NCBI GenBank assembly: GCA_039586795.1 | Contig: JBDHJS010000003.1 | Span: 1-64,000 of the forward strand | Length of the DNA: 64,000 nucleotides | Direction of reading: 5' to 3' | DNA from: Gemmatimonadota bacterium | GTDB lineage: Bacteria > Gemmatimonadota > Gemmatimonadetes > Palauibacterales > KS3-K002 | Shown: piece after piece, positions 36,822 to 55,961 of the stretch | How positions within the stretch are numbered: position 1 is the first letter of the stretch | How the letters are laid out: each line of letters opens with the position of its first letter | Translations under genes and position numbers: made by a program | Notes under the pieces: model-generated | Seen by the model: only the letters and a program-made list of their open reading frames with translations | Databases searched by the model: none | Told to the model about the DNA's origin: nothing

Positions 36822-38618
36822 ATGATGAAACTCAAGCCAGCCGTCGTGTTCTCTTTGCTGCTGTTTGCTGGGTACATCTTGTCCGGTTGCGACACCGACA
36901 TGCAGCACGAGGTCGAGGATTACATCTCACGATACAACGAGCGGATGCAGGGTTTGTACTACGAGTCATCCAAGGCGGAGTGGGCATCGAACACTCATAT
37001 CGTCGAGGGTGACACGACCAACGCCGCGCGAACGCGTGCCGCCAACGAAGCATTGGCAGAGTTCGTCGGCAGTCCAGAGAACATCGAACGCATCCGGCAC
37101 TTCCTCGACAATCGGGACCGGCTGACCGAGCTCGAGGTACGCCAGCTCGAGGTAATGCTGTTTGCGGCGGCAAACCAACCGGGTACCGAGCCGGAGCTGG
37201 TCGCGAATCGTATCGCGGCGGAGACCAGACAAGTTGAGACGCTGTTCGGTTTCGATTTCAAGCTGGACGGTCGATCCATAACGCCAAACGAAATCGACGG
37301 GCTTCTGCGAAGTAGCGATGACCTGCGCGAGCGCCTGGCCGTTTGGGAGTCTTCGAAGGAGGTTGGCCCGGTACTCAAACCGGGGATCATCGAGCTTCAA
37401 CGGTTGCGGAACGAGACGGTTCGAGCCCTGGGCTACTCCGATTTCTTCGCTTATCAGGTATCCGAATACGGAATGAGCAGCGAAGAGATGCTGGAGATGA
37501 CGGGCACGCTGATAGAGCAGCTTCAGCCCTTATATCGAGAGTTGCACACCTGGGCGCGCTACGAGCTGGCGGAACGCTACGGCGAGCCGGTACCGGACAT
37601 GATACCCGCCCATTGGCTGCCCAACCGGTGGGCTCAGGACTGGACGGCACTGGTGAGCGTGGAGGGCCTCGACCTGGACGCCTCGTTGAGTGAGAAGTCG
37701 CCCGAGTGGATCGTCGAGCAAGGCGAGCAATTCTATGTCAGCCTGGGCTTCGATGAGCTGCCGGGCAGTTTTTACGAGCTGTCATCTCTGTACCCGTTGG
37801 AACCGGGAGCTGACTATAAGAAGAACACCCACGCGTCGGCATGGCACATGGACCTAGACACCGACGTGCGCTCGCTGATGAGCGTGGAGACGAACTCGTA
37901 CTGGTGGGAAACCGTCCTGCACGAGCTTGGACACGTCTACTACTTCATGAGCTACACGAATCCCGATGTGCCGCTGGTCCTACGCGAAGGCGCCAATCGC
38001 GCCTACCACGAAGGGATCGGCAGCCTCATCGGGCTCGCCTCGATGCAACGCAGCTTCCTGGTAAATCGTGGGCTTGTGGAGGCTGACGTGGAGGTCGATC
38101 AGGTCGCCCAACTGCTGCAGGAGGCACTCAACTACGTAGTGTTCATCCCGTTCTCCGCCGGCGTGATGACGCGGTTCGAGCACGCGCTGTACGCCGAGGA
38201 GCTACCCGCCGATCAACTCAACGCCCGGTGGTGGGACCTGGTGGCGGAGTATCAGGGCGTCGTGCCGCCCAATCCACGTGGCGAAGATCATGCAGACGGG
38301 CTAACGAAGACACATATCAATGACGATGCGGGTCAGTACTATGACTACGCATTGGCGAACGCGCTGCTGTTCCAATTGCACGATCACATCGCGAGGGAAC
38401 TCCTCGAACAGGACCCTTACGACACGGACTATTGGGGCTCCAGAGAAGTCGGCGAGTTCCTCCACGAACTGATGGCGCCAGGCGCGAGCCGGCCATGGCG
38501 CGAGGTGCTACAGCAAACGACCGGTCGCGAACTCGATGCTCAGGCGATGGTGGAGTACTTCCAGCCGTTATACGAATGGCTGGTAGAACAGAATCGCGGG
38601 CGGCGGCACAGCATATAA
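36822..38618 (+). CDS. M2 family metallopeptidase (peptidyl-dipeptidase A/ACE-like) lipoprotein
   Basis: Lipobox LSGC, IPAHWL, HASAW, HELGH (HExxH) and REGAN..YHEGIG. Confidence 0.9.
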   Translation: MMKLKPAVVFSLLLFAGYILSGCDTDMQHEVEDYISRYNERMQGLYYESSKAEWASNTHIVEGDTTNAARTRAANEALAEFVGSPENIERIRHFLDNRDRLTELEVRQLEVMLFAAANQPGTEPELVANRIAAETRQVETLFGFDFKLDGRSITPNEIDGLLRSSDDLRERLAVWESSKEVGPVLKPGIIELQRLRNETVRALGYSDFFAYQVSEYGMSSEEMLEMTGTLIEQLQPLYRELHTWARYELAERYGEPVPDMIPAHWLPNRWAQDWTALVSVEGLDLDASLSEKSPEWIVEQGEQFYVSLGFDELPGSFYELSSLYPLEPGADYKKNTHASAWHMDLDTDVRSLMSVETNSYWWETVLHELGHVYYFMSYTNPDVPLVLREGANRAYHEGIGSLIGLASMQRSFLVNRGLVEADVEVDQVAQLLQEALNYVVFIPFSAGVMTRFEHALYAEELPADQLNARWWDLVAEYQGVVPPNPRGEDHADGLTKTHINDDAGQYYDYALANALLFQLHDHIARELLEQDPYDTDYWGSREVGEFLHELMAPGASRPWREVLQQTTGRELDAQAMVEYFQPLYEWLVEQNRGRRHSI

Positions 38619-43848: not shown

Positions 43849-43966
43849 GGACGCTTCGTGAGAGAGTTGTCGGATCATCGGTTCGCCTGGTACTGACGTA
43901 CTGGCGGACGTTCTCCGTGTCAACGAGCCTTGCGCGATCGGCTCCATCGTGTGCTATTTCTGCGCC

Positions 43967-44449
43967 ATGATGCTCCTATCAAAGCCGCTAAAGATATCGC
44001 TGACGATATCAGCCGCCATGCTGGCAGTAATCGTGATCGTCGACCTGATCACGCCGGTACCACCGCGCGAACGGCTCCGCGCGATGCGGAACGAACTGGT
44101 GGAGCTGAGGGCGTCGGCCGACTCCTGCCGTACGGCGCTGGACAGGGAGGAAACCCTCCTGCAGGCGAGCGACGCGCGGTTCGATTCGCTACGCAACCTC
44201 ATAGCGCGTTACGAGGGGATCGACCCACGGGGCGTACCCGCCGACAGCTACGACCTCTATCTAGAGGCGTTCAACTCGTATAACGAAGGGATCCCGGCAC
44301 GCGAGGCAGCGGGCGAGACGCTGCAAGCCCACTGGGCCAACTGCACGGTGATCATCGAGCAGCACAACCTGCTGGCCGACTCTGCCCGTCAGCTGGCCGA
44401 GGAGAGCGGCCTGGTTACCGACTCGACCCGCCGGGTACCGGTGCCCTGA
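43967..44449 (+). CDS. Hypothetical membrane-anchored helical/coiled-coil protein
   Basis: N-terminal hydrophobic segment followed by an amphipathic helical region with two Cys. Confidence 0.65.
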   Translation: MMLLSKPLKISLTISAAMLAVIVIVDLITPVPPRERLRAMRNELVELRASADSCRTALDREETLLQASDARFDSLRNLIARYEGIDPRGVPADSYDLYLEAFNSYNEGIPAREAAGETLQAHWANCTVIIEQHNLLADSARQLAEESGLVTDSTRRVPVP

Positions 44450-44629
44450 CCTCCGCCCACAACCCGGCGACCCTAGCCGGGTGGCGACTCACTCCGCAGA
44501 TTGCAGTATGAGGCGCGTGCGTAGCGCCCTCACACATCAGCCGTAATCACCTAGCCTCAACCGGCCCAGCCCGCTCTGCAGTCGCTCGGCGGGCACGAAG
44601 TGCCTCTGACGAACACGAGTCAAGAAGAC

Positions 44630-47600
44630 ATGAGCGCGAAACTGTGGGATGTGATCATCGTTGGCGGCGGCCCAGCCGGAATCACCGCCGCGCTCAGGCT
44701 AGCCCGAGAGGACCTGGATATCCTGGTCGTCGAAGCCGCGGTCTACCCCGGAGCCGAGAACTGGTCTGGAGCGGTGTATTTCGCCGAAAACCTGGCCGAC
44801 CCTAAGGTCCTCGGAGTGGATGGGCTGGAAGCGGCCCCGTACGAAGGGCGCGTGGTCAAGCGCGGGTTTTTCTCGTGCAACGGTCTGTCGATGGCCGGGC
44901 TGGAGTATGAAAACCCGGAGACATTCAAGCACTGCTATACCGTGCTGCGGCCGGTCTACGATCGCTACCTGGCCGAGGTGGCACGTCGGGAAGGCGTCAC
45001 GTTTTTGACCGAGACGACCGTCGACGGCCTGATCCGACGGAACGACCGCGTTGTTGGCGTGCATACGGATCGCGGTCCGGTCTACGGCCAGATCGTCTTT
45101 TTGGCTGAGGGAGATGCGTCACACCTGGTGAGCAAGGAAGGCTTCGAGGGTGACGCGGTCCGCGCGAAGAAGAACGGCCAACCGGCGTTCTTGCAGGGTG
45201 TGAAGGAAGTCATCCAGCTAGAGCCGGAAGTCATCGAGGATCGGTTCGGAGTAGGGCCCGGCGAAGCGTGCTGCTACGAGATCTTGCTGAGGAACGGTGT
45301 CGTCGACGGAAAGCCAGTCCGCCTGAACATGGCGGGTCTCCTGTACACGAATCGAAACAGCGTGTCGATCGGGCTCGTGATGCCTCTGGACAACCTCGCC
45401 GAGTATCGCGGGGACTACAACGCATTGATGGAGTGGTATAAGAGCCTTCCACCGATCGCGCGCCTCATCGAAGGCGGCGAGGCCACCTCGTTCGGGGCGA
45501 AGATCATCCGCAGTGGCGGCCTGGCCGAGATGCCGCGGCTGGTCGCCGATGGCGTCGTGGTGGGCGGAGCGGCAACGGGGATCGGCGTTGACTTTCCGTA
45601 TCCGAACTTCACGGGCCCGGCCACGGCGATGGGCCGGATCTTCGCCGATGCCGTATTGAAGCTCCAGTCAGAGGGTGCGGAGCCACGGAGCGGGCAGTTG
45701 GAAGAACTGTACGTCCAGCCCTTGAAGGAAACGAGCTACTACAAGGATGTCGACTACCTCCGCGATTGGCCCGGCTTCATCGAGCACACCGATGCGCTAT
45801 TCAGCCGCCAGATCGACCTGCTGAACGGTTCGTCCTACGCAATGACTCGACCGACCCTCCGCTTTCCACACAGCTGGTGGGAGACGGTGCGGGTGGTGAG
45901 CGAGACGATGAAGGGCCGCTGGTCGAAGACACTGAAGGACCTTGCGGGTGGGTCGAAGGCGCTGCGCATGGGCCGATTGATCGCCAAGCACATGCCGGCG
46001 GCCCTGCTGCTGTCGGTCCCCAACACGCTCCTGGCGTTGATGCCGTTCGCTTATGGCAAGGGGCCAGGCAAGATCAGCCTGAGTTTCTGGGTGGACGGCG
46101 AGGAGTCGAGAACCCTCCCCTGGTACAAGCGCTGGTCGTACGCCCGGTATCGGTCGGCCCTGATGAAGGCAACAGCGATCGTCTACGCGAACGACGGTGT
46201 CCCGATCCGGACGAAGCTGGATCGCGCGATTGGCACTCTGCTGCGGCGCTTCTCGCTATGGGAAATCGTGCTCGGCGTACTCGGGGTCGCCGTATTCTGG
46301 CTAACGCGCGGCCTACAGAAGCTTAGCGACGCGATACGCTATTCCCGTAAGAAGCCGACGATCGAAGAACTCACGGCGACCTTCTACGGCAGCTGGCTGA
46401 CGCGCTGGCGCGCGATGACCGACCTGGCGCGGGCGGCGTCGACGGGCCAGACGCATGATGCGAAGCTCGGCGAGATCAGCTATGGCGGCGATGTGGGCTC
46501 GCACATCAAGGTGTTCTTCCCACCGGACAAGCCCGGTACGCTCGAAGATCCAAGCCGGTCGGCGCTCTGGAGCGTGTGCCCGGCGTCCGTCTACCAGATC
46601 AACGTCGATCGCACAATGCACGCGTCGGTTGCCGTGAACTTCGAGAACTGCGTGAAGTGCGAGACGTGCTGGCGAATCGAACCACAGCACGTGGACTGGT
46701 CACGGTTCGGAAAGCATCGTCTGACCTATGAAGTGTACACGGACGCCGACGCCTCGCTGCGGCAGCTTTTATCCGAACGTGAATTGCGTGACACGCCTGA
46801 GATAGAGCCGAGCTTTTGGAGCGCCACGCTCACGGAAGCGTGGCCCGTCGGTCACGTCGAGGCGTCCGACGCGCTACGGAGCGACATCACGAACGCGCGA
46901 CGCGCCATCGACCGGGCTGCCGCGAAGTGCAGCGAACTGAGCGATAACATCTGGCTCGGCCCGAGGGTACTGGAGCCTGGCCAGGTCAGCTGGTACATCT
47001 CGGCTCTCGAGTACTTCGCGGTACTCGCCGATGAGGCTGCCAGCGTCGCCCTATCCGAACCGATCGAAGACTGGCTGATCGAGCACGAGTTGGCAGGCGC
47101 TCATCTGGAGCTTCTGCAAGCGAAGCGGGACCTGGATCTCGTCACGCGAGGGATCCGGGAGCATGCGGGCTCCCAGAAGTTCTTCGCCGGCGAGGCCGAC
47201 GCACGACAGGCCGCCGGTCATCATCTAGCGGGCATGCGAGAGATCATCGATCGCATCGCGCTGGCCTGCCGCATCCCCGACGACTACGTCGATCCCGTGG
47301 CGGAGCTACGGAATCAGGAGCAGGAATCACCGGCGCGCGCCGCGGCCCGTGAGGAACTGCGGGAGCATCTCGCGGCCATCTTCGATCGCGGCGCGATCCG
47401 GCGGTTGGAAGATGGTGGGTCACCGGAAGGAGCAGAGATCGAGGCTCTGCGCGAGTCGACGCGGGCGGCTTTGGGGGATGAAACGCAGGGCGCATTCGAC
47501 AGCTGGGCACCGCTCACGAGGAGCGACATCCTCGGCGAGCTATCCCGCATCGACCCATCGCTCGCCATCCTCGTGGCCGGTCACCTTGAGGGACTCGCGG

Positions 47601-50600
47601 CTCTCGAGGGTGCAGGAGCTACGGCGAAGGTTATCGGACCGCTCAAGAAGGTCGAGGTGTTCGTCACCCTGGCCACGGAAGTGGCCGGGCAACCCGGCGA
47701 CGGCAAATGGAACGGAGCCTTGCCGTTCGCGCTGACGGCGTTGGCGGATCGGTTCGTTTCCCGAGGCGAAGGGCAGGTCGCCGTATTCGGGCTGAAAAGC
47801 AAAGGTGTAAAGGCCAGCATCACGCCGGCGATTGGGCTCACCGGCGCGGCGGCATCGGAGATCTTGCTCAAAGACGCCAAGCCGATGTGGTCGGGCGACT
47901 GGACGGAGGCTGACGAGACTGAACTGTTCGCAGCGCGCGTTCGCGATGCTGCGGCCATAGCTCTCGGCTCGGCGACGATACTCACCGAACGGGCAATCGA
48001 TCACGCGCGCAGTCGCATTCAATTCCCGGACATGTTCCAGGATCTGGATGGCCGCGACGGCGTTGGCAAGTTCGGCGCCGTGCGTGCGCACCTGAGCCAC
48101 ATCGAGGCTTCACGGCTGGCCATCGAAACGATACTCAACGACTGCGATTGGACCGCGGACTCGGATCTCGAGGCGATGGTTGGAAAGGTCGCGGTCACGG
48201 ATCTCTTCGGCCCCGACATGCCGAGCATCACCTATCGGGCGGGTCAGGTGATCGGCGGCTCCGCGTTCTCGGAGGAGGACATCTTCTCGAAGGCCTACCG
48301 CGACAGCTCGGTGTTCACTCACTACATCCGAGAGAACGCGGAGCTGAACGTGGAGATCGGTTCGAGGATATCCGCGGGCGACGGTTCGCTGCTGGCGACG
48401 ATCGCGCCTGACCTATCGGCGGCGCTGGACGTCGTGGCACGACGACCGATCTTCGACTTCGAGGTGAATCGCCTACGCGAGGCGGAGATGCAGTTGGCGG
48501 AGAACATGCGCGGCGTGCTCTCTCAAGGACAGGAACCAGCCGTCGCCGAGGTCGTGCACGACATCGCCGGCGAGCTGGTGACGCGACTGTATGTGTGGGC
48601 GCGCCTCATGGTGCGGGCCTACCGACGCCTGGAGGGCGCGCTCCCCGCCCAGCGTTACCTAGAGGCCGTCCAGCTATGGGCGGACATCATAGAAGAGCGT
48701 CTGCTGGGCCTCGAGGATGAGCTCGCGCAATCCGCCGCTCGAATCGAACTGGGCACCGACGCGCTTCAGTTGGACGCCTACCCCGACGAGCCGATCGCGA
48801 CCAGCGGACTCGACTTCGACCTGGACAAAGACGTCATCAAAGGTGAGGTGAACTACCGCTCCGGCGATTTCCTCTTGAAGCCGTTCCGCATCGATGAGAC
48901 CCGATACACGCCCGAGCTACAGTGGGTAGACGATGTCACCAGAAACCACTACGACGAGTATCTGAAGGAGATCCGGGAGCGCTTCCAGACCGGCAGGTAC
49001 AAGCCTTCCTTCGAACGGGAAACGGAGCGGCTTCACTGTATTCCTCGTGAGGATATCGACTGGACAGTGGACCGTGGCTACTTCCGCGTGGTGATCCCGG
49101 AGGAGTACGGCGGACAGGGTCGATCCAAAGCCGACTACTACAACCTGTGTCAGATCGCGAAGCGGCACGGCGACGTAAGTCTTACGCTCACAATCCAAGC
49201 CAACACTAGTATCGGGACCACACCAATGCTGCTGGGTCTGGATGAAGTGATAGCTGCCGAACGCGATCTCGCGGGCGCGGTCGCGAGGGCAGCCGATGTC
49301 GAGGCCGCGAAGTCAGAGATCGAAAAGCTGATCGAGATGATGTCGATGCCAGATGTCGATGCGCTGGCGAAGAAGTACATGGAGATTGACAAGAGCGTCC
49401 GCAGCTCGATCGGCAAGAGCAGGATTCTGAAAAAGGTGGTATTCGGAAAGTTCCAGTCGGCCTGGGGCAAAGCTGGGGCGGCCGGAATGAAGAAGGATCT
49501 TGTCGGTTTTCGGAAGGGCCTCGAGAAGGCGGTGGTCGCGCTGGGTGGTTGGCAGGAGCGAGTCGCAGCCGAACTCGATGAGATGCCGCGGCGTCGTATG
49601 GCCCACGAATTCTTCCTGCGGCTGATCTCGTCCCGGATCACGTCGGCCTTCTCCCTCACCGAGCCGAGCGCCGGATCAGATACGGCTCGGGTCCGTACGG
49701 AGGCGCGCCTCGACTCGCGGAGCGTGCTGACGGATGACGACGGCGTGAAACACTTCTATCTGGACGAGGATGATCCGGAAAGCCGTCGCAACCTGGCGGA
49801 CATGCGACGATTCGAGTTTGACGGGCGCCGGATACTGTATCGGTACAGCGACGACGCCGATCCTGCTGAAGTCCACTCTCAGGAATACACGTACTCGGAG
49901 GACGAGGAGAAGTATCGCTACTTCATGATCGGCGACCGACGGGTCGACATCCACGACATGGCGATCGTGCGTGAGCGTGATGGTGAAGAGGTCTACGAGT
50001 TCTTCGTGCTGAACGGCGCCAAGATGTGGATCACCAACGGCCACATCGCCGGCGTCAACGCCATCTACGCCCGGACTCCAATGGGGCTCACCGGGTTCAT
50101 GGTCGATGCGCTGACGGATGGGTTCCTAGTCGGCAAGGACGAGGAGAAGACGGGACAGCGTGGTTCACCGACGAACGAGATCGGACTCACCAACGTACGC
50201 ATCCCGCGCGAGTGCATGATCGGCATCGAGGGCCGGGGTCAGGAAAACGCGCTGGAGACGCTCAACGTCGGTCGGACGGGGCTGTGTATCTCATCGACGG
50301 CCGGCATCGACCAGGCGATCGGCGACGCGACGGCCTACCTGGAAGAGACCGGGCGGAATTCGTCAGCCGGAGTGCGCTACCGGTTGGGTCTGACGATGGA
50401 GGAGATGTATGCCGTCGAATCGATCGCCTACAACCTGGTCGGGATCTACGACGACAAGACCAGCGACATGCCGCGCGTGGAGTCATCGATTGCCAAGCTC
50501 TTCGGGACGGAAGGACTCCACCGAATGCTCCACTTCCTGGAGCCGGTGTATGGCATCGATGGTCAGACACAGCGTTACCGCATCGAGAAGGACCGACGCG

Positions 50601-53083
50601 ACGCTAGGGTGATGACGATCTACGAGGGCACGAACGAGATCCAACAGTTCCTGTTGCTGAAGGATGTGATCGACATGGTCGGGCCGAGGCTGGACAAACT
50701 CGAGGAACTGGACGTCTCGGCTGAAGACTCGGTGTTCAAAGCCGAGGTCGATGCCCTGCGCGAGATGCACGCTGCGGTCAGGGAACGGGTGAAAGAAACA
50801 CGTGCGACCTATAAGAGCGCCGCCTGGCAGCGCGCGTTGCTGCAGCCTGTGTTCTTCCGTCTGGCGCGAATGGTCGCGCTGCTGAAGACAGTGGACAGCG
50901 TTCTGCACCGCGCCGACTGGGTGGCGCGCAACCTCACGGCGGACGCGGACGCGTTCCGTCGGAGTTGGAGCGACAAGGCAGCGCGCGGCTTTGTCGCGAG
51001 AGCGCGCCGCGAGTTCATGCGGTTGGCGACGGGCTTTGATCGCGATTTCGAGACCTTGAAGGCGGGCGGCCGCACCGCCGAGTTGAAGCTGGCGGAGACG
51101 CTACTCGACGAAACGGAGATCGCCGCCGCGCACGGAAAGGCGGGCACCGGCGGGATCGAGAGGTCGCCGATCGATCGAGGTTTGGAGATCGTTGTAGCGC
51201 TGGAACGAGCGCCGCATTTGGCGCCGCGACCGCGCGTCATTGACGGCGAGCTGGCCGAGCACGTGTACGGATTCACGGCGGGAGACCGTCGTGCTCTGTC
51301 GATGGCTCTGGCTTTGAAATCGGCGTCGCCGGAGCGGGTCCGTGTGACGCTAGTATGTGCCGCGCCCGTGGAAGTGGAGGACGCGCTGCGCGCCGGGCTG
51401 GCCGCAGGCGCGGACCGGGCAATTCTGATCGACACGCGCGGGGAGTTGTACGAGGAGCATTCGGTTGCCGACGCGATCACCGGTGTTCTGCGACAACGCA
51501 ACATCGATCCCGACCTGCTTCTTTCTGGCGCGTCGGAGGACGGCCCCAGCGGGGGCCGGCTCGGCCTCAGACTCGCGAGCGAATTGGACATCGAATGGGC
51601 CCCGAACGTGACCGAGCTGTGGGTGGACGGGAGCACGGCGGTAGTGACCAGCGAACGGTTTCCCGACAGCCTCATAAAGGCGGACCTGCCTGTTGCCGCA
51701 TCGGTCGCGGGATCGGAAGGCGAGCCCGCTCCGGAGTTCACGGCCGCCGGTTTTGCGGAGGCGCTACGCAAAGACGTGGATGCCGTCCCGTTCCCAGACG
51801 ACGCGGAACGCGCCGACGAGGAGCTAGCAACGACATCAGCACAGGCGACAACTGAGTCGCATGACGATGCCGGTCGCATCGATCCAGAGCGCGCCGCCGA
51901 GCTACTGGTTGAAGTCGGCGACCTGGGAGACGGCTCCGCCGTGCCGACGGGCGAACCACATGCGGGAGCCATCGAGTCGGTCAGCGTCGACTCGTTGGAT
52001 TGGCGCGGGGTGGTCTTCATCGCCGAGATCGAAGACGACAACCTGGTTAGAGACGCCAGAGCGCCGCTCGAGGCAGCGAGCGGCCTGGCAGAACGATCCT
52101 CTCTTCCACTATCGGGTTTGGTATTGAGCGAGCGTCTGTCCGATGACCGCCGTCGAGCGATCGCCGGACGCCTCGCCGCGCACGCGCCGTTCGGGCAGAT
52201 CGTTTTCGCAGAGCACGATGCTCTGGGCGACGGCGCCTACCGCGCCTACGTCGAAGCATTGGAGAAGCTGGTGGGGCCGGAATCCAGAACGCGCCCGACC
52301 TATCTAGTATCATCGCCGTGGCTGGCCGACGCGATGCCACCGCTGGCGGAGGTGCTTCGTCGATCCGACGTCGACGCGGACGAACTGGCCGGTGTTTCGC
52401 GGGTGGAGTTCCGCGACGGCGATGGTGTCGCGTTCGTCCAACCCGCGTACGAGCGTAAGTTGAGAGCACGACGTCACCTTCCTTACGCCGCTGACGCGAT
52501 GCGGATCCTATGGTTCGAACCCGAAGTTACGTCGGAGCCAGGGGAAGCGACCTCATCGGATCCGACGGTAGTAGTGGTCGGCCTCGATCTGGACTACGAT
52601 CCGCAAACAGATGCCCTGACCGAAGCGCTGCTCGAGGCAAAGAAGGCCCTTGGTGTGGTGACGTTGGAGAACGCCGAGTTCGTCATCGACGTGGGTGCCG
52701 GCCTGGGCTCCGTCGACAATCTGGACACGGTTGTGGAGCCATTGCGCCAAGCGCTGCTCGAGCTCGGGGCGCCGCACGTACTCATCGGCGCAACCCGCAA
52801 GGTGACGATAGATATGAGCTGGCTGCCGGAAGAGCTTCAGGTCGGGCAGACCGGCGTTCGAGTGAATCCGCGTATCATGATCGCGCTGGGCGTTTCAGGC
52901 GCGCCTCAGCACATCGACTGGGTGGGCGATCGCGCGGTGATCTTCGCGTTCAACATGGATGCGCAGGCGCCGCTGATGACGCTCAACCAGAGACGTGAAC
53001 AGCCGAAGGTCTACCCGATCGTCGGCAACCTGCTCGAGACCGTCCCCCGCTTCATCAAGGCTCTGAAGCACGGACGCGATTGA
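44630..53083 (+). CDS. Giant fusion: FixC/ETF-QO FAD domain + 4Fe-4S + two acyl-CoA dehydrogenase domains + ETF-beta + ETF-alpha
   Basis: In order: GGGPAG; CPASVY..NCVKCETC; ACAD motifs RIQF/QVIGG, then FSLTEPSAGSD/LNGAKMWITNG/IYEGTNEIQ; AGADRAILID; and GATR/QVGQTG/GVSGAPQH. No internal stop over 8.4 kb. Start is 44630 (ATG) or 44600 (GTG). Confidence 0.9.
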   Translation: MSAKLWDVIIVGGGPAGITAALRLAREDLDILVVEAAVYPGAENWSGAVYFAENLADPKVLGVDGLEAAPYEGRVVKRGFFSCNGLSMAGLEYENPETFKHCYTVLRPVYDRYLAEVARREGVTFLTETTVDGLIRRNDRVVGVHTDRGPVYGQIVFLAEGDASHLVSKEGFEGDAVRAKKNGQPAFLQGVKEVIQLEPEVIEDRFGVGPGEACCYEILLRNGVVDGKPVRLNMAGLLYTNRNSVSIGLVMPLDNLAEYRGDYNALMEWYKSLPPIARLIEGGEATSFGAKIIRSGGLAEMPRLVADGVVVGGAATGIGVDFPYPNFTGPATAMGRIFADAVLKLQSEGAEPRSGQLEELYVQPLKETSYYKDVDYLRDWPGFIEHTDALFSRQIDLLNGSSYAMTRPTLRFPHSWWETVRVVSETMKGRWSKTLKDLAGGSKALRMGRLIAKHMPAALLLSVPNTLLALMPFAYGKGPGKISLSFWVDGEESRTLPWYKRWSYARYRSALMKATAIVYANDGVPIRTKLDRAIGTLLRRFSLWEIVLGVLGVAVFWLTRGLQKLSDAIRYSRKKPTIEELTATFYGSWLTRWRAMTDLARAASTGQTHDAKLGEISYGGDVGSHIKVFFPPDKPGTLEDPSRSALWSVCPASVYQINVDRTMHASVAVNFENCVKCETCWRIEPQHVDWSRFGKHRLTYEVYTDADASLRQLLSERELRDTPEIEPSFWSATLTEAWPVGHVEASDALRSDITNARRAIDRAAAKCSELSDNIWLGPRVLEPGQVSWYISALEYFAVLADEAASVALSEPIEDWLIEHELAGAHLELLQAKRDLDLVTRGIREHAGSQKFFAGEADARQAAGHHLAGMREIIDRIALACRIPDDYVDPVAELRNQEQESPARAAAREELREHLAAIFDRGAIRRLEDGGSPEGAEIEALRESTRAALGDETQGAFDSWAPLTRSDILGELSRIDPSLAILVAGHLEGLAALEGAGATAKVIGPLKKVEVFVTLATEVAGQPGDGKWNGALPFALTALADRFVSRGEGQVAVFGLKSKGVKASITPAIGLTGAAASEILLKDAKPMWSGDWTEADETELFAARVRDAAAIALGSATILTERAIDHARSRIQFPDMFQDLDGRDGVGKFGAVRAHLSHIEASRLAIETILNDCDWTADSDLEAMVGKVAVTDLFGPDMPSITYRAGQVIGGSAFSEEDIFSKAYRDSSVFTHYIRENAELNVEIGSRISAGDGSLLATIAPDLSAALDVVARRPIFDFEVNRLREAEMQLAENMRGVLSQGQEPAVAEVVHDIAGELVTRLYVWARLMVRAYRRLEGALPAQRYLEAVQLWADIIEERLLGLEDELAQSAARIELGTDALQLDAYPDEPIATSGLDFDLDKDVIKGEVNYRSGDFLLKPFRIDETRYTPELQWVDDVTRNHYDEYLKEIRERFQTGRYKPSFERETERLHCIPREDIDWTVDRGYFRVVIPEEYGGQGRSKADYYNLCQIAKRHGDVSLTLTIQANTSIGTTPMLLGLDEVIAAERDLAGAVARAADVEAAKSEIEKLIEMMSMPDVDALAKKYMEIDKSVRSSIGKSRILKKVVFGKFQSAWGKAGAAGMKKDLVGFRKGLEKAVVALGGWQERVAAELDEMPRRRMAHEFFLRLISSRITSAFSLTEPSAGSDTARVRTEARLDSRSVLTDDDGVKHFYLDEDDPESRRNLADMRRFEFDGRRILYRYSDDADPAEVHSQEYTYSEDEEKYRYFMIGDRRVDIHDMAIVRERDGEEVYEFFVLNGAKMWITNGHIAGVNAIYARTPMGLTGFMVDALTDGFLVGKDEEKTGQRGSPTNEIGLTNVRIPRECMIGIEGRGQENALETLNVGRTGLCISSTAGIDQAIGDATAYLEETGRNSSAGVRYRLGLTMEEMYAVESIAYNLVGIYDDKTSDMPRVESSIAKLFGTEGLHRMLHFLEPVYGIDGQTQRYRIEKDRRDARVMTIYEGTNEIQQFLLLKDVIDMVGPRLDKLEELDVSAEDSVFKAEVDALREMHAAVRERVKETRATYKSAAWQRALLQPVFFRLARMVALLKTVDSVLHRADWVARNLTADADAFRRSWSDKAARGFVARARREFMRLATGFDRDFETLKAGGRTAELKLAETLLDETEIAAAHGKAGTGGIERSPIDRGLEIVVALERAPHLAPRPRVIDGELAEHVYGFTAGDRRALSMALALKSASPERVRVTLVCAAPVEVEDALRAGLAAGADRAILIDTRGELYEEHSVADAITGVLRQRNIDPDLLLSGASEDGPSGGRLGLRLASELDIEWAPNVTELWVDGSTAVVTSERFPDSLIKADLPVAASVAGSEGEPAPEFTAAGFAEALRKDVDAVPFPDDAERADEELATTSAQATTESHDDAGRIDPERAAELLVEVGDLGDGSAVPTGEPHAGAIESVSVDSLDWRGVVFIAEIEDDNLVRDARAPLEAASGLAERSSLPLSGLVLSERLSDDRRRAIAGRLAAHAPFGQIVFAEHDALGDGAYRAYVEALEKLVGPESRTRPTYLVSSPWLADAMPPLAEVLRRSDVDADELAGVSRVEFRDGDGVAFVQPAYERKLRARRHLPYAADAMRILWFEPEVTSEPGEATSSDPTVVVVGLDLDYDPQTDALTEALLEAKKALGVVTLENAEFVIDVGAGLGSVDNLDTVVEPLRQALLELGAPHVLIGATRKVTIDMSWLPEELQVGQTGVRVNPRIMIALGVSGAPQHIDWVGDRAVIFAFNMDAQAPLMTLNQRREQPKVYPIVGNLLETVPRFIKALKHGRD

Positions 53084-54731: not shown

Positions 54732-55961
54732 TCAGGAGGGATCGTGAATGACGCCGATGAAGAGGATGGTGCCGGAGAAGCGTTCACGGATCGCGAAGAG
54801 AAACGGCCTATCGACACGCACAGCCATCGGCGCGCTGGTAACACCCACCTCGACAGAGGTGACAGCGGCCGCCTCGGTGCCCTCTTCGTTGACATCGACA
54901 AAGGTCTTGTGTTTGACTTTGCTGATGAAGAGCTGAGCCTGGTCGTTGATCCTGGAGAAATCGGCGTTCAGTTCGTCGAAGGCGATCTCCATGCCGAGGG
55001 CCTTCAGCGCTTCGTTCAACTCGATCTCGTACTCGAGGGTGAACTTGGGGAGGTACACCTCCATTTCAGCGGCCAGCAGCCCGTCGATCCAACCCTGCCA
55101 TGTGGCCGCGTCAATCGAAGCGACCAGCGAATCGATGTCACGACCACGGTCCGGCAGAACGATCGTCATGCTATACGCCTTACCGCCATACGGAAGGTCG
55201 GCTACAAGAACGCCTTCATCGTAGTAGGATCGCAATTCCGCTTCGCCGCCGTGGGTCATCATCGGCACCTGGACCGTACCGCCGTCGGCCAGGGTGAAGA
55301 CGCCAGGCGCGGTCCGATCCGGATCGAATTGGGTGGTCCAGTTCCCCTTGAAGTAGATGGCATTGATGAGGAACATGATGATCTCGGGCGCGATCGCATC
55401 GACAATCTCACTGATCCGACCGTTGGTTTTATCGTCTACCCAGCTGTTGATGATCCCCGGTGCGCCAGGGTCGTCGAAGTCGAGCGTCGCCACCTCGGCG
55501 TCGAAGTGCTCGATGTTTACATCGATGAAATCCTGTTCGACGGGAAAGTTCTCACGAATCCAGATCGAGTTGGCCAGAGTGAACTGCACGGAAGAGTCGA
55601 GGTTAGCAAGAAGATCGATCAGGCTGCGATAGGAGTCGTTTACGTCATCGATCGATAGCCCCTGTAGCTCGAGCGTCTCTTGCATAGCCTCGAGCGTTGT
55701 GCCATCGGCGCCGTTGTATACCATGCCGAGCGCCATGGCGACGCTGAGCGGTGATAGAAAGATGTTGGCACCAACTTCCTCGCCCTGATGAACTTCGCGG
55801 AAGAGCTTGAGGCCGAAGCTGTTGTCCGACTCGATGAGCTGCTCTTCACCCGCTTCGAGGTCGCGAGGAAGCCCTTCGATCTGCGGATTCTGGATATCTT
55901 CGTCGCATCCCAGCGCGACCAGCACCCAAAGACCCGCTACGATAGCTGTGAGTCGTCTCAT
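54732..55961 (-). CDS. Serpin family lipoprotein
   Basis: Lipobox ALGC, NIFLSPLS, NAIYFKGNW, LPKF, VNEEGTEAAA hinge and DRPFLFAI. Confidence 0.95.
   Translation of the reverse strand: MRRLTAIVAGLWVLVALGCDEDIQNPQIEGLPRDLEAGEEQLIESDNSFGLKLFREVHQGEEVGANIFLSPLSVAMALGMVYNGADGTTLEAMQETLELQGLSIDDVNDSYRSLIDLLANLDSSVQFTLANSIWIRENFPVEQDFIDVNIEHFDAEVATLDFDDPGAPGIINSWVDDKTNGRISEIVDAIAPEIIMFLINAIYFKGNWTTQFDPDRTAPGVFTLADGGTVQVPMMTHGGEAELRSYYDEGVLVADLPYGGKAYSMTIVLPDRGRDIDSLVASIDAATWQGWIDGLLAAEMEVYLPKFTLEYEIELNEALKALGMEIAFDELNADFSRINDQAQLFISKVKHKTFVDVNEEGTEAAAVTSVEVGVTSAPMAVRVDRPFLFAIRERFSGTILFIGVIHDPS

Follow-up and report, generated by a model that had tools for sequence, protein, structure and literature searches.

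A predicted single-chain acyl-CoA:quinone oxidoreductase family in a Gemmatimonadota bacterium and its relatives

Main finding

The window analysed here is a stretch of 64,000 nucleotides (positions 1 to 64,000) of contig JBDHJS010000003.1 of a Gemmatimonadota bacterium (assembly GCA_039586795.1), in which one long open reading frame (ORF) at 44630..53083 on the forward strand was studied. Its product, hereafter the fusion, is probably a one-chain, membrane-attached acyl-CoA:quinone oxidoreductase that would perform the FadE step and deliver the electrons to the quinone pool itself, as judged from domains and motifs. The acyl-CoA dehydrogenase (ACAD), electron-transfer flavoprotein (ETF) and ETF:quinone oxidoreductase (ETF-QO) that connect acyl-CoA breakdown with the respiratory chain are normally four to six separate proteins. 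Electron transfer inside the fusion would be self-contained and channelled. The fusion is a real, conserved and old family, and its two ACAD units likely share one active site served by a tethered ETF with a single flavin.

The fusion gene and its family

44630..53083, + strand: whole gene, 2,817 amino acids (aa), 309.8 kDa, with full-length homologues

Translation gave a single open frame of 2,817 residues in which the sole stop is the terminal one, with a calculated mass of 309.8 kDa. This bears out the uninterrupted ORF of ~2,820 aa reported by the initial annotation, which had also named ORF continuity and full-length homologues in related genomes as checks; unbroken frames and full-length homologues were found in relatives, as follows. 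The frame is open already from a GTG at 44600, and the homologues start at the Met at 44630. It is the second-longest open frame of the genome; a longer one of 2,947 codons is located on contig C79. The GC content at third codon positions was 0.776, compared to a median of 0.76 for the 1,022 open frames of at least 500 codons in the genome, and codon composition is typical of the genome. A promoter and terminator scan of 44200-44700 found none, repeats consisted of short chance-level pairs, no in-frame palindromic element was present and no plasmid matched the fusion at E 1e-40.

A total of 141 protein matches at E 1e-20 or better was obtained from 8,000 scored candidates. Among the 120 listed matches (query included), 117 span 2,499-3,036 aa, and these long homologues have ~31-70% identity. 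The full protein was encoded in one stop-free frame in 8 of 40 relatives' genomes. Four apparent splits were inspected (G001, G015, G016 and L024) and all coincide with runs of N, so that none is a natural fission. Fragments shorter than 2,450 aa (P0018, P0020 and P0021) were left out of the alignment of 139 rows, and motif and connector counts refer to 134 distinct sequences after removal of five duplicate rows. A quick tree search on the FixC domain only (84 rows) placed 70 fused sequences apart from 14 free FixC proteins with SH-aLRT 100, which is compatible with a single origin of the fused family and does not prove it.

That the ORF arose by an assembly error or by recent read-through of an operon was given virtually no probability. 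No public-run contig covers the entire gene, which would fit such an artefact; the matches were short contigs, their pieces being listed without gaps. However, the 117 long homologues, the eight unbroken frames and the coincidence of the inspected splits with runs of N rule it out, and the fused FixC domains forming one clade also speak against it. The public runs containing window DNA were mostly sediment metagenomes. One RNA run held the pieces 49547-49740, 50087-50491 and 52189-52373 with 0-1 differences; as the share was 0.07, with contigs only and no silent control, these pieces give no evidence of expression.

Domain architecture

The modules of the fusion, all on the + strand, are as follows.

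44630..45829, aa 1-400: FixC/ETF-QO-type domain for flavin adenine dinucleotide (FAD) and quinone; 7koe_C E 4e-30, 2gmh_A E 6e-14
45830..46429, aa 401-600: likely membrane-binding segment with a hydrophobic helix; no Pfam match
46442..46744: single ETF-QO-type 4Fe-4S domain with C650, C674, C677 and C680; aligns with 2gmh 527-570
46847..47284, aa 740-885: poorly conserved connector of unknown fold, probably helical
47297..48379, aa 890-1250: ACAD-1, predicted pseudo-enzyme; CarC match E 2e-4
48380..48784, aa 1251-1385: C-terminal extension of ACAD-1, weakly homologous to that of ACAD-2 (hhalign 49%, E 1.8e-4)
48917..50674, aa 1430-2015: ACAD-2, predicted active dehydrogenase; ACAD9 match E 4e-34
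49235..49609, aa 1536-1660: insertion of ~125 aa in the ACAD-2 N-terminal domain; a gap against ACAD9
49721..49999, aa 1698-1790: insertion of ~93 aa in the ACAD-2 middle domain, in all 134 sequences; no Pfam match
50717..51124, aa 2030-2165: VLCAD/FadE-like C-terminal extension of ACAD-2, by family profile
51167..51799: divergent EtfB (domain III) that has lost its nucleotide-binding motif
51857..52609: EtfA domain I, with the lowest conservation of all modules (90% or more in 1 of 251 columns)
52610..53080: EtfA domain II, FAD-binding, with conserved flavin-site residues

The initial annotation had read, in order, a FixC/ETF-QO-like domain, a four-Cys cluster, two ACADs, EtfB and EtfA, and Pfam and PDB matches agreed with this order, with boundaries right to ~50 codons. 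Pfam matches comprised FAD-binding (aa 7-148), a weak ETFQO_UQ-bd (239-293, E 0.012), Fer4_ETF_QO (649-690), Acyl-CoA_dh_N/M/1 (1454-1534, 1781-1856 and 1868-2006) together with a second Acyl-CoA_dh_1 stretch, ETF (2213-2382, E 2e-16) and ETF_alpha (2679-2762). PDB matches were also obtained to EtfA/EtfB, and the family profile covers both EtfA domains. The four-Cys cluster was confirmed as C650, C674, C677 and C680 (46577-46669) in an ETF-QO-type site, CP...CxxCxxC, with each Cys present in 133/134 sequences and the remaining one a gap. Cofactor motifs were intact in the FixC, FeS, ACAD-2 and EtfA modules.

The FixC/ETF-QO domain was the best conserved module, with 130 of 400 columns at 90% or more; the fusion scored 150 bits with the curated FixC model, for which the cut-off is 610. 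A hydrophobic helix at aa 541-559 (46250-46306) is the only transmembrane-like window in the protein, with a hydropathy of at least 1.6 in 102 of the 139 alignment rows, and the segment of aa 401-600 likely attaches the protein to the membrane. The connector gave no convincing match in Pfam, ESM Atlas or hhalign against the other modules; in ESM Atlas, recognition of aa 710-900 was below threshold with mixed helical matches. The length of the insertion in the ACAD-2 N-terminal domain ranges from 29 to 150 and is shorter in some relatives. The family profile continues into the extensions of 2z1q_A and 3owa_A, and the fused EtfB has 30% identity to the free EtfB of the genome. Connectors between modules are short, with medians of 31-62 residues.

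Two ACAD units and one predicted active site

ACAD-2 carries FSLTEPSAGSD, GAKMWITNG, the catalytic E1999 (50624) of the J-K loop and E1838. Its cis FAD motifs were found in 133/134 sequences and the catalytic YEG in 134/134, QxxGG in 0/134 and RxQF in 7/134 by a loose pattern. ACAD-1 retains R1129-x-Q-F, K1147-F-G and Q1206-x-x-G-G; RxQF was present in 133/133 sequences, QxxGG in 132/133 and the cis FAD motifs in 0/133. I1233 of ACAD-1 occupies the position of the catalytic Glu in alignments to VLCAD and CarC, and Glu was found there in 0/134. The motifs RxQF and QxxGG contact the FAD of the neighbouring subunit. In the control, 67 of 73 ordinary ACADs held both motif sets in one chain. Since ACAD-2 is without RxQF and QxxGG while ACAD-1 has only these, the FAD site of ACAD-2 would be completed by ACAD-1. 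Both ACAD domains of the initial annotation are thus present; as the catalytic Glu and the cis FAD motifs are missing from ACAD-1, it would be a dead partner and not a second enzyme.

From these motifs, ACAD-1 is predicted to be a catalytically dead pseudo-enzyme, and ACAD-1 and ACAD-2 likely form one shared active site as in the mycobacterial ChsE pairs, where the Glu and the isoalloxazine site belong to the alpha subunit and the ADP-ribose part is bound by the beta subunit (PMC11153573). In an ACAD dimer, the FAD is likewise bound by both subunits (PMC5798300). We infer an asymmetric fold of the chain, a pseudo-dimer with a single FAD and a single active site. ACAD-1 with its extension and ACAD-2 with its extension showed weak homology (hhalign 60%, E 9e-5), as expected of an old duplication. 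Asp1106 of ACAD-1 (47945-47947) was conserved in 125 of 139 rows and Glu1971 of ACAD-2 (50540-50542), which replaces the Gln of QxxGG, in 134/134; both are possible interface residues.

The same chemistry could take place between chains, with ACAD-1 completing the ACAD-2 of another chain, or with the ETF serving a neighbouring chain or free ACADs, in an oligomer rather than a closed wire. This is rather unlikely, although ACADs are usually dimers or tetramers (PMC5798300), the connectors are short, the ETF is ~1,500 residues away from the FeS domain, and an EtfB docking helix is recognisable by eye, though variable. In VLCAD and MCD the C-terminal extension takes the place of the second dimer (PMC5798300), and both ACADs of the fusion have a VLCAD-like extension, so that a single chain contains the four helical units that make up a dimer. 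The four inspected cases without a natural split also speak against pairing between chains.

The fused ETF

Conservation of the ETF was high in EtfA domain II and low in domains I and III. R2723, the counterpart of human alpha-Arg249, was present in 131/134 sequences with gaps in the remaining three, and EtfA domain II also keeps Q2737, Q2760-H2761, N2775 and D2777. The Arg of the EtfA GRG is replaced by F/Y/A and a new K2724 is invariant. E1838 of ACAD-2, at MCAD position 212, was present in 134/134; a salt bridge between Arg249 and Glu212 stabilises the transfer-competent ACAD-ETF state (PMC11153573 section 11). The counterpart of beta-Leu195, matched by eye to position 2372, was Leu in 13, Val/Ile in 65 and Thr in 47 of 139 rows.

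AMP or the bifurcating FAD is bound by a peptide (DGDTAQ in the bifurcating site) and an Arg of domain I (PMC8958531). A loose pattern for this peptide was found in 2/134 fused sequences, neither of them canonical, and the motif of the domain I partner Arg in 3/134 by pattern; the free EtfBA of the genome has both. As the AMP and bifurcation motifs are missing and the flavin-site residues are kept, the fused ETF probably works as a shuttle with one flavin, its degenerate base being held by the chain itself.

Operation in reverse (enoyl-CoA reduction by quinol) or with splitting of NADH electrons as in Fix/EtfABCX and Bcd-Etf was considered very improbable. In its favour, the N-terminal module resembles ETF-QO less than it does FixC from the bifurcating Thermotoga complex, and the bifurcating CarC and Bcd rank high among the ACAD matches. 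The near absence of the peptide and domain I Arg motifs stands against bifurcation, however, and so do the neighbours of the fusion in relatives, which are degradative beta-oxidation genes.

Proposed mechanism

In the proposed oxidation of acyl-CoA to the quinone pool, ACAD-2 would oxidise the acyl-CoA with Glu1999 as base, its activity being predicted from the motifs, and ACAD-1 would complete its FAD site with residues that usually come from a neighbouring subunit. The tethered ETF would carry single electrons on the flavin of domain II and may dock on ACAD-2 through Arg2723 and Glu1838, the counterpart of ETF Arg249 and MCAD Glu212. No bifurcation would take place, and the covalent link would replace an AMP-stabilised assembly. 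By analogy with ETF-QO and FixCX, the electrons would pass to the 4Fe-4S cluster and the FixC flavin and then to quinone. The expected cofactor content is three FAD, one 4Fe-4S and no AMP.

Distribution and variants

The record names of the homologues include Gemmatimonadota, Planctomycetota, Acidobacteriota, Verrucomicrobiota, Nitrospirota and Proteobacteria, and among the matches listed the closest named relatives were Gemmatimonadota (63-68% identity). The spread of the fusion is patchy. It was found in 22 of 31 genomes of the family of the window, including 12 of the 12 near-complete ones, in 0 of 250 sampled genomes of other families of the phylum and in at least 28 of 201 genomes of a Gemmataceae-family sample. 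In addition to the full-length proteins, a compact form of 2,285-2,442 aa with the same module order was found.

A reduced form of 1,311-1,713 aa was represented by 13 proteins among the 150 best matches and by 7 of 20 planctomycete loci, the latter taken from 28 matching planctomycete-family genomes.

Reduced-form proteins: P0140, P0144, P0147, P0150, P0156, P0157, P0161, P0163-P0166, P0178, P0183
Reduced-form loci: L116-L120, L122, L135

The reduced form has FixC, the four Cys and the connector, together with the C-terminal helices and the extensions of both ACADs, and sometimes EtfB. Both catalytic cores and EtfA are missing, and some members are also without the GAENWSG motif. It formed one clade within the planctomycete full-length proteins (SH-aLRT 96). 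Family ACAD-2 and EtfA domain II were not found in five incomplete reduced-form genomes, a search without positive control, and a metagenome scan for the reduced form gave 276 pattern matches, none confirmed. As the reduced form keeps the helices after losing the cores, the helical bundles appear to be a scaffold of the protein.

It is tentatively proposed, and on balance not quite expected, that the fusion represents a multi-phylum megaenzyme family in which a tethered ETF without AMP moves to and fro between an ACAD pseudo-dimer with one site and a FixC-type reductase of its own chain as a closed wire, together with a derived planctomycete branch without catalytic cores and EtfA, in which FixC-FeS would be carried by the ACAD helices alone and receive its electrons from a new donor.

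Genomic context and pathway

In the planctomycete sample, a fadJ-like gene was located upstream of the fusion in 15/20 loci (14 directly), a thiolase gene was present in 8/20 and an acyl-CoA ligase gene in 5/20, and a lipase-like hydrolase gene was located downstream in 9/20. A fadJ-like gene was also found at 5 of 17 other genome-scan loci, including Nitrospirota and Proteobacteria records. For the neighbours tested, the top NCBIfam models were FadJ, a FadI-like thiolase and a long-chain acyl-CoA ligase, mostly with scores below the cut-off. Because the relatives sit in fadJ/thiolase/ligase operons, the fusion likely takes the slot of a missing FadE and does the FadE step.

Several observations weigh against this assignment and against the one-chain function proposed above. 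No beta-oxidation gene adjoins the fusion in the window or in the short flanks of the loci of its own family, and the fadJ-like gene of the genome is isolated on another contig, so that the substrate proposed for this lineage is carried over from distant relatives. The initial annotation had already reported the absence of beta-oxidation flanks in the window, which stands; its view that the substrate is unknown stands only in part, given the fadD-fadI-fadJ operons of the relatives. The loci are related and their counts are not independent. The reduced form adjoins fadJ in 5/7 loci despite having no catalytic ACAD, which makes adjacency weaker as proof of function. Free EtfAB, ETF-QO and a third ETF operon are likewise encoded in the source genome, where the fusion is therefore not needed as a sole route and would be an extra, dedicated one. 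Finally, frameshifts were present at five further loci (L026, L028, L121, L134 and L135), and the catalytic motif was itself part of the pattern used to collect the control ACADs.

It was regarded as improbable that in this Gemmatimonadota family the substrate is a special acyl-CoA (with a branched, an aromatic or a steroid side chain) and not a straight-chain fatty acid, and that the fusion is for this reason kept beside the ordinary ETF. The missing fad neighbours in this family would fit, as would the presence of the fusion in all 12 near-complete family genomes with housekeeping ETF and ETF-QO beside it in the source genome, the two large insertions in ACAD-2 and the action of the one-active-site ChsE enzymes on steroid side chains (PMC11153573). 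However, the active-site motifs are near invariant across lineages, including those with fadD-fadI-fadJ operons, and in relatives the genes beside the fusion match long-chain acyl-CoA ligase, FadI and FadJ best.

The source genome has six other ACAD loci. The third ETF operon, unfused and located on contig C106 (L093:7849-14385), encodes a divergent ACAD of 744 aa, an ETF-QO-like reductase with a ferredoxin tail, a divergent etfB and etfA, and an unrelated 216-aa gene lies between the reductase and etfB. An origin of the fusion from this operon was rejected (ACAD E 1.7, quinone reductase E 4e-7).

Neighbouring genes

43949..44449, + strand: small upstream gene, hydrophobic at the N-terminus and outside known families; no Pfam/NCBIfam match

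Homologues of this gene were found by tblastn in 10 of 11 relatives' loci (L002-L012) and in L094 and L096, and a divergent uracil-DNA glycosylase gene accompanies it upstream of the fusion in the family. The fusion gene shares its final 29 bases (53055-53083) with a downstream minus-strand ORF similar to polysaccharide flippases. A bacterial serpin, which several relatives also encode downstream of the fusion, was identified at 54732-55961 (Pfam E 4e-112). The window also encodes an M2 peptidase similar to angiotensin-converting enzyme at 36822-38618 (E 7e-97). In 9 of the 20 loci L116-L135, a 560-aa gene lies directly downstream of the fusion (L128:15487-17166 and homologues); its product matches lipase-like alpha/beta-hydrolases weakly and only over the C-terminal part. 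In a Proteobacteria record, a compact fusion adjoins a gene for sulphur oxygenase reductase (L029:8886-9926).

Novelty and significance

No published description of the fusion was found in literature searches aimed at it, which covered few subscription papers, and it is not described in passages of PMC3578206, PMC12042025, PMC2702500 and PMC13083937. The databases label the homologues only as 'FAD-binding protein' or ETF-QO. The fusion is apparently undescribed and arranges a known pathway in a new architecture. Added here are the reciprocal loss of motifs in the two ACADs with its control, the conserved pair of predicted docking residues, the operons of the relatives and the reduced branch.

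In the relay of ACAD, ETF and ETF-QO the partners meet briefly and ETF domain II swings widely, which makes the relay hard to capture. A rotation of the ETF domain of 80 degrees is cited in PMC8958531. In a natural chain that holds all partners, a single cryo-EM sample may show both docking states. If the proposed mechanism is true, the fusion would also be a portable one-gene module that couples acyl-CoA oxidation to respiration. It would further represent an independent route to a one-active-site ACAD and, in uncultured bacteria of sediment and soil, a way of using fatty acids that has been overlooked.

Comparison with known systems

The canonical chain of ACAD, ETF and ETF-QO (MCAD/VLCAD, 1efv, 2gmh) has the same three functions as those predicted here and a single 4Fe-4S motif of the ETF-QO type, and the fusion keeps the counterparts of its Arg249 (ETF) and MCAD Glu212. 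The fusion differs in having everything in one chain, with the AMP-site motifs lost, the GRG Arg replaced, two large ACAD insertions and one predicted active ACAD site.

Fix/EtfABCX of Thermotoga maritima (7koe) was the best match of the N-terminal domain (E 4e-30), and both systems combine an ETF, a quinone reductase and FeS. In contrast to Fix/EtfABCX, the fusion has no bifurcating-flavin motif and four conserved Cys only, includes ACAD and scored below the FixC cut-off. SaETF has EtfB followed by EtfA in one chain, as in the fusion; it is bifurcating and its partners are encoded by separate neighbouring genes (PMC12042025).

ChsE1-ChsE2 and ChsE4-ChsE5 (alpha2beta2) resemble the fusion, by sequence, in having one catalytic and one ADP-ribose subunit (PMC11153573). 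The ChsE halves are encoded by two separate genes, whereas the fusion holds both in a single chain, with the predicted dead half first and a VLCAD-like extension on each. Among the 60 matches shown, those of the fusion were to VLCAD/ACAD9/FadE and not to ChsE chains.

Bacillus-type FadE, VLCAD and ACAD9 share with the fusion an ACAD core with a C-terminal extension and have the role in beta-oxidation that is predicted for the fusion, but are homodimers with two sites. FadE34 is a two-ACAD fusion. The closest NCBIfam ACAD model was that of Bacillus-type FadE, with 138 bits against a cut-off of 600. Overall, by the features tested, the fusion falls outside the FixC, FadE, ChsE and bifurcating ETF families. 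A likeness to succinate dehydrogenase is proposed, in that the fusion may be a closed wire for the first step of beta-oxidation.

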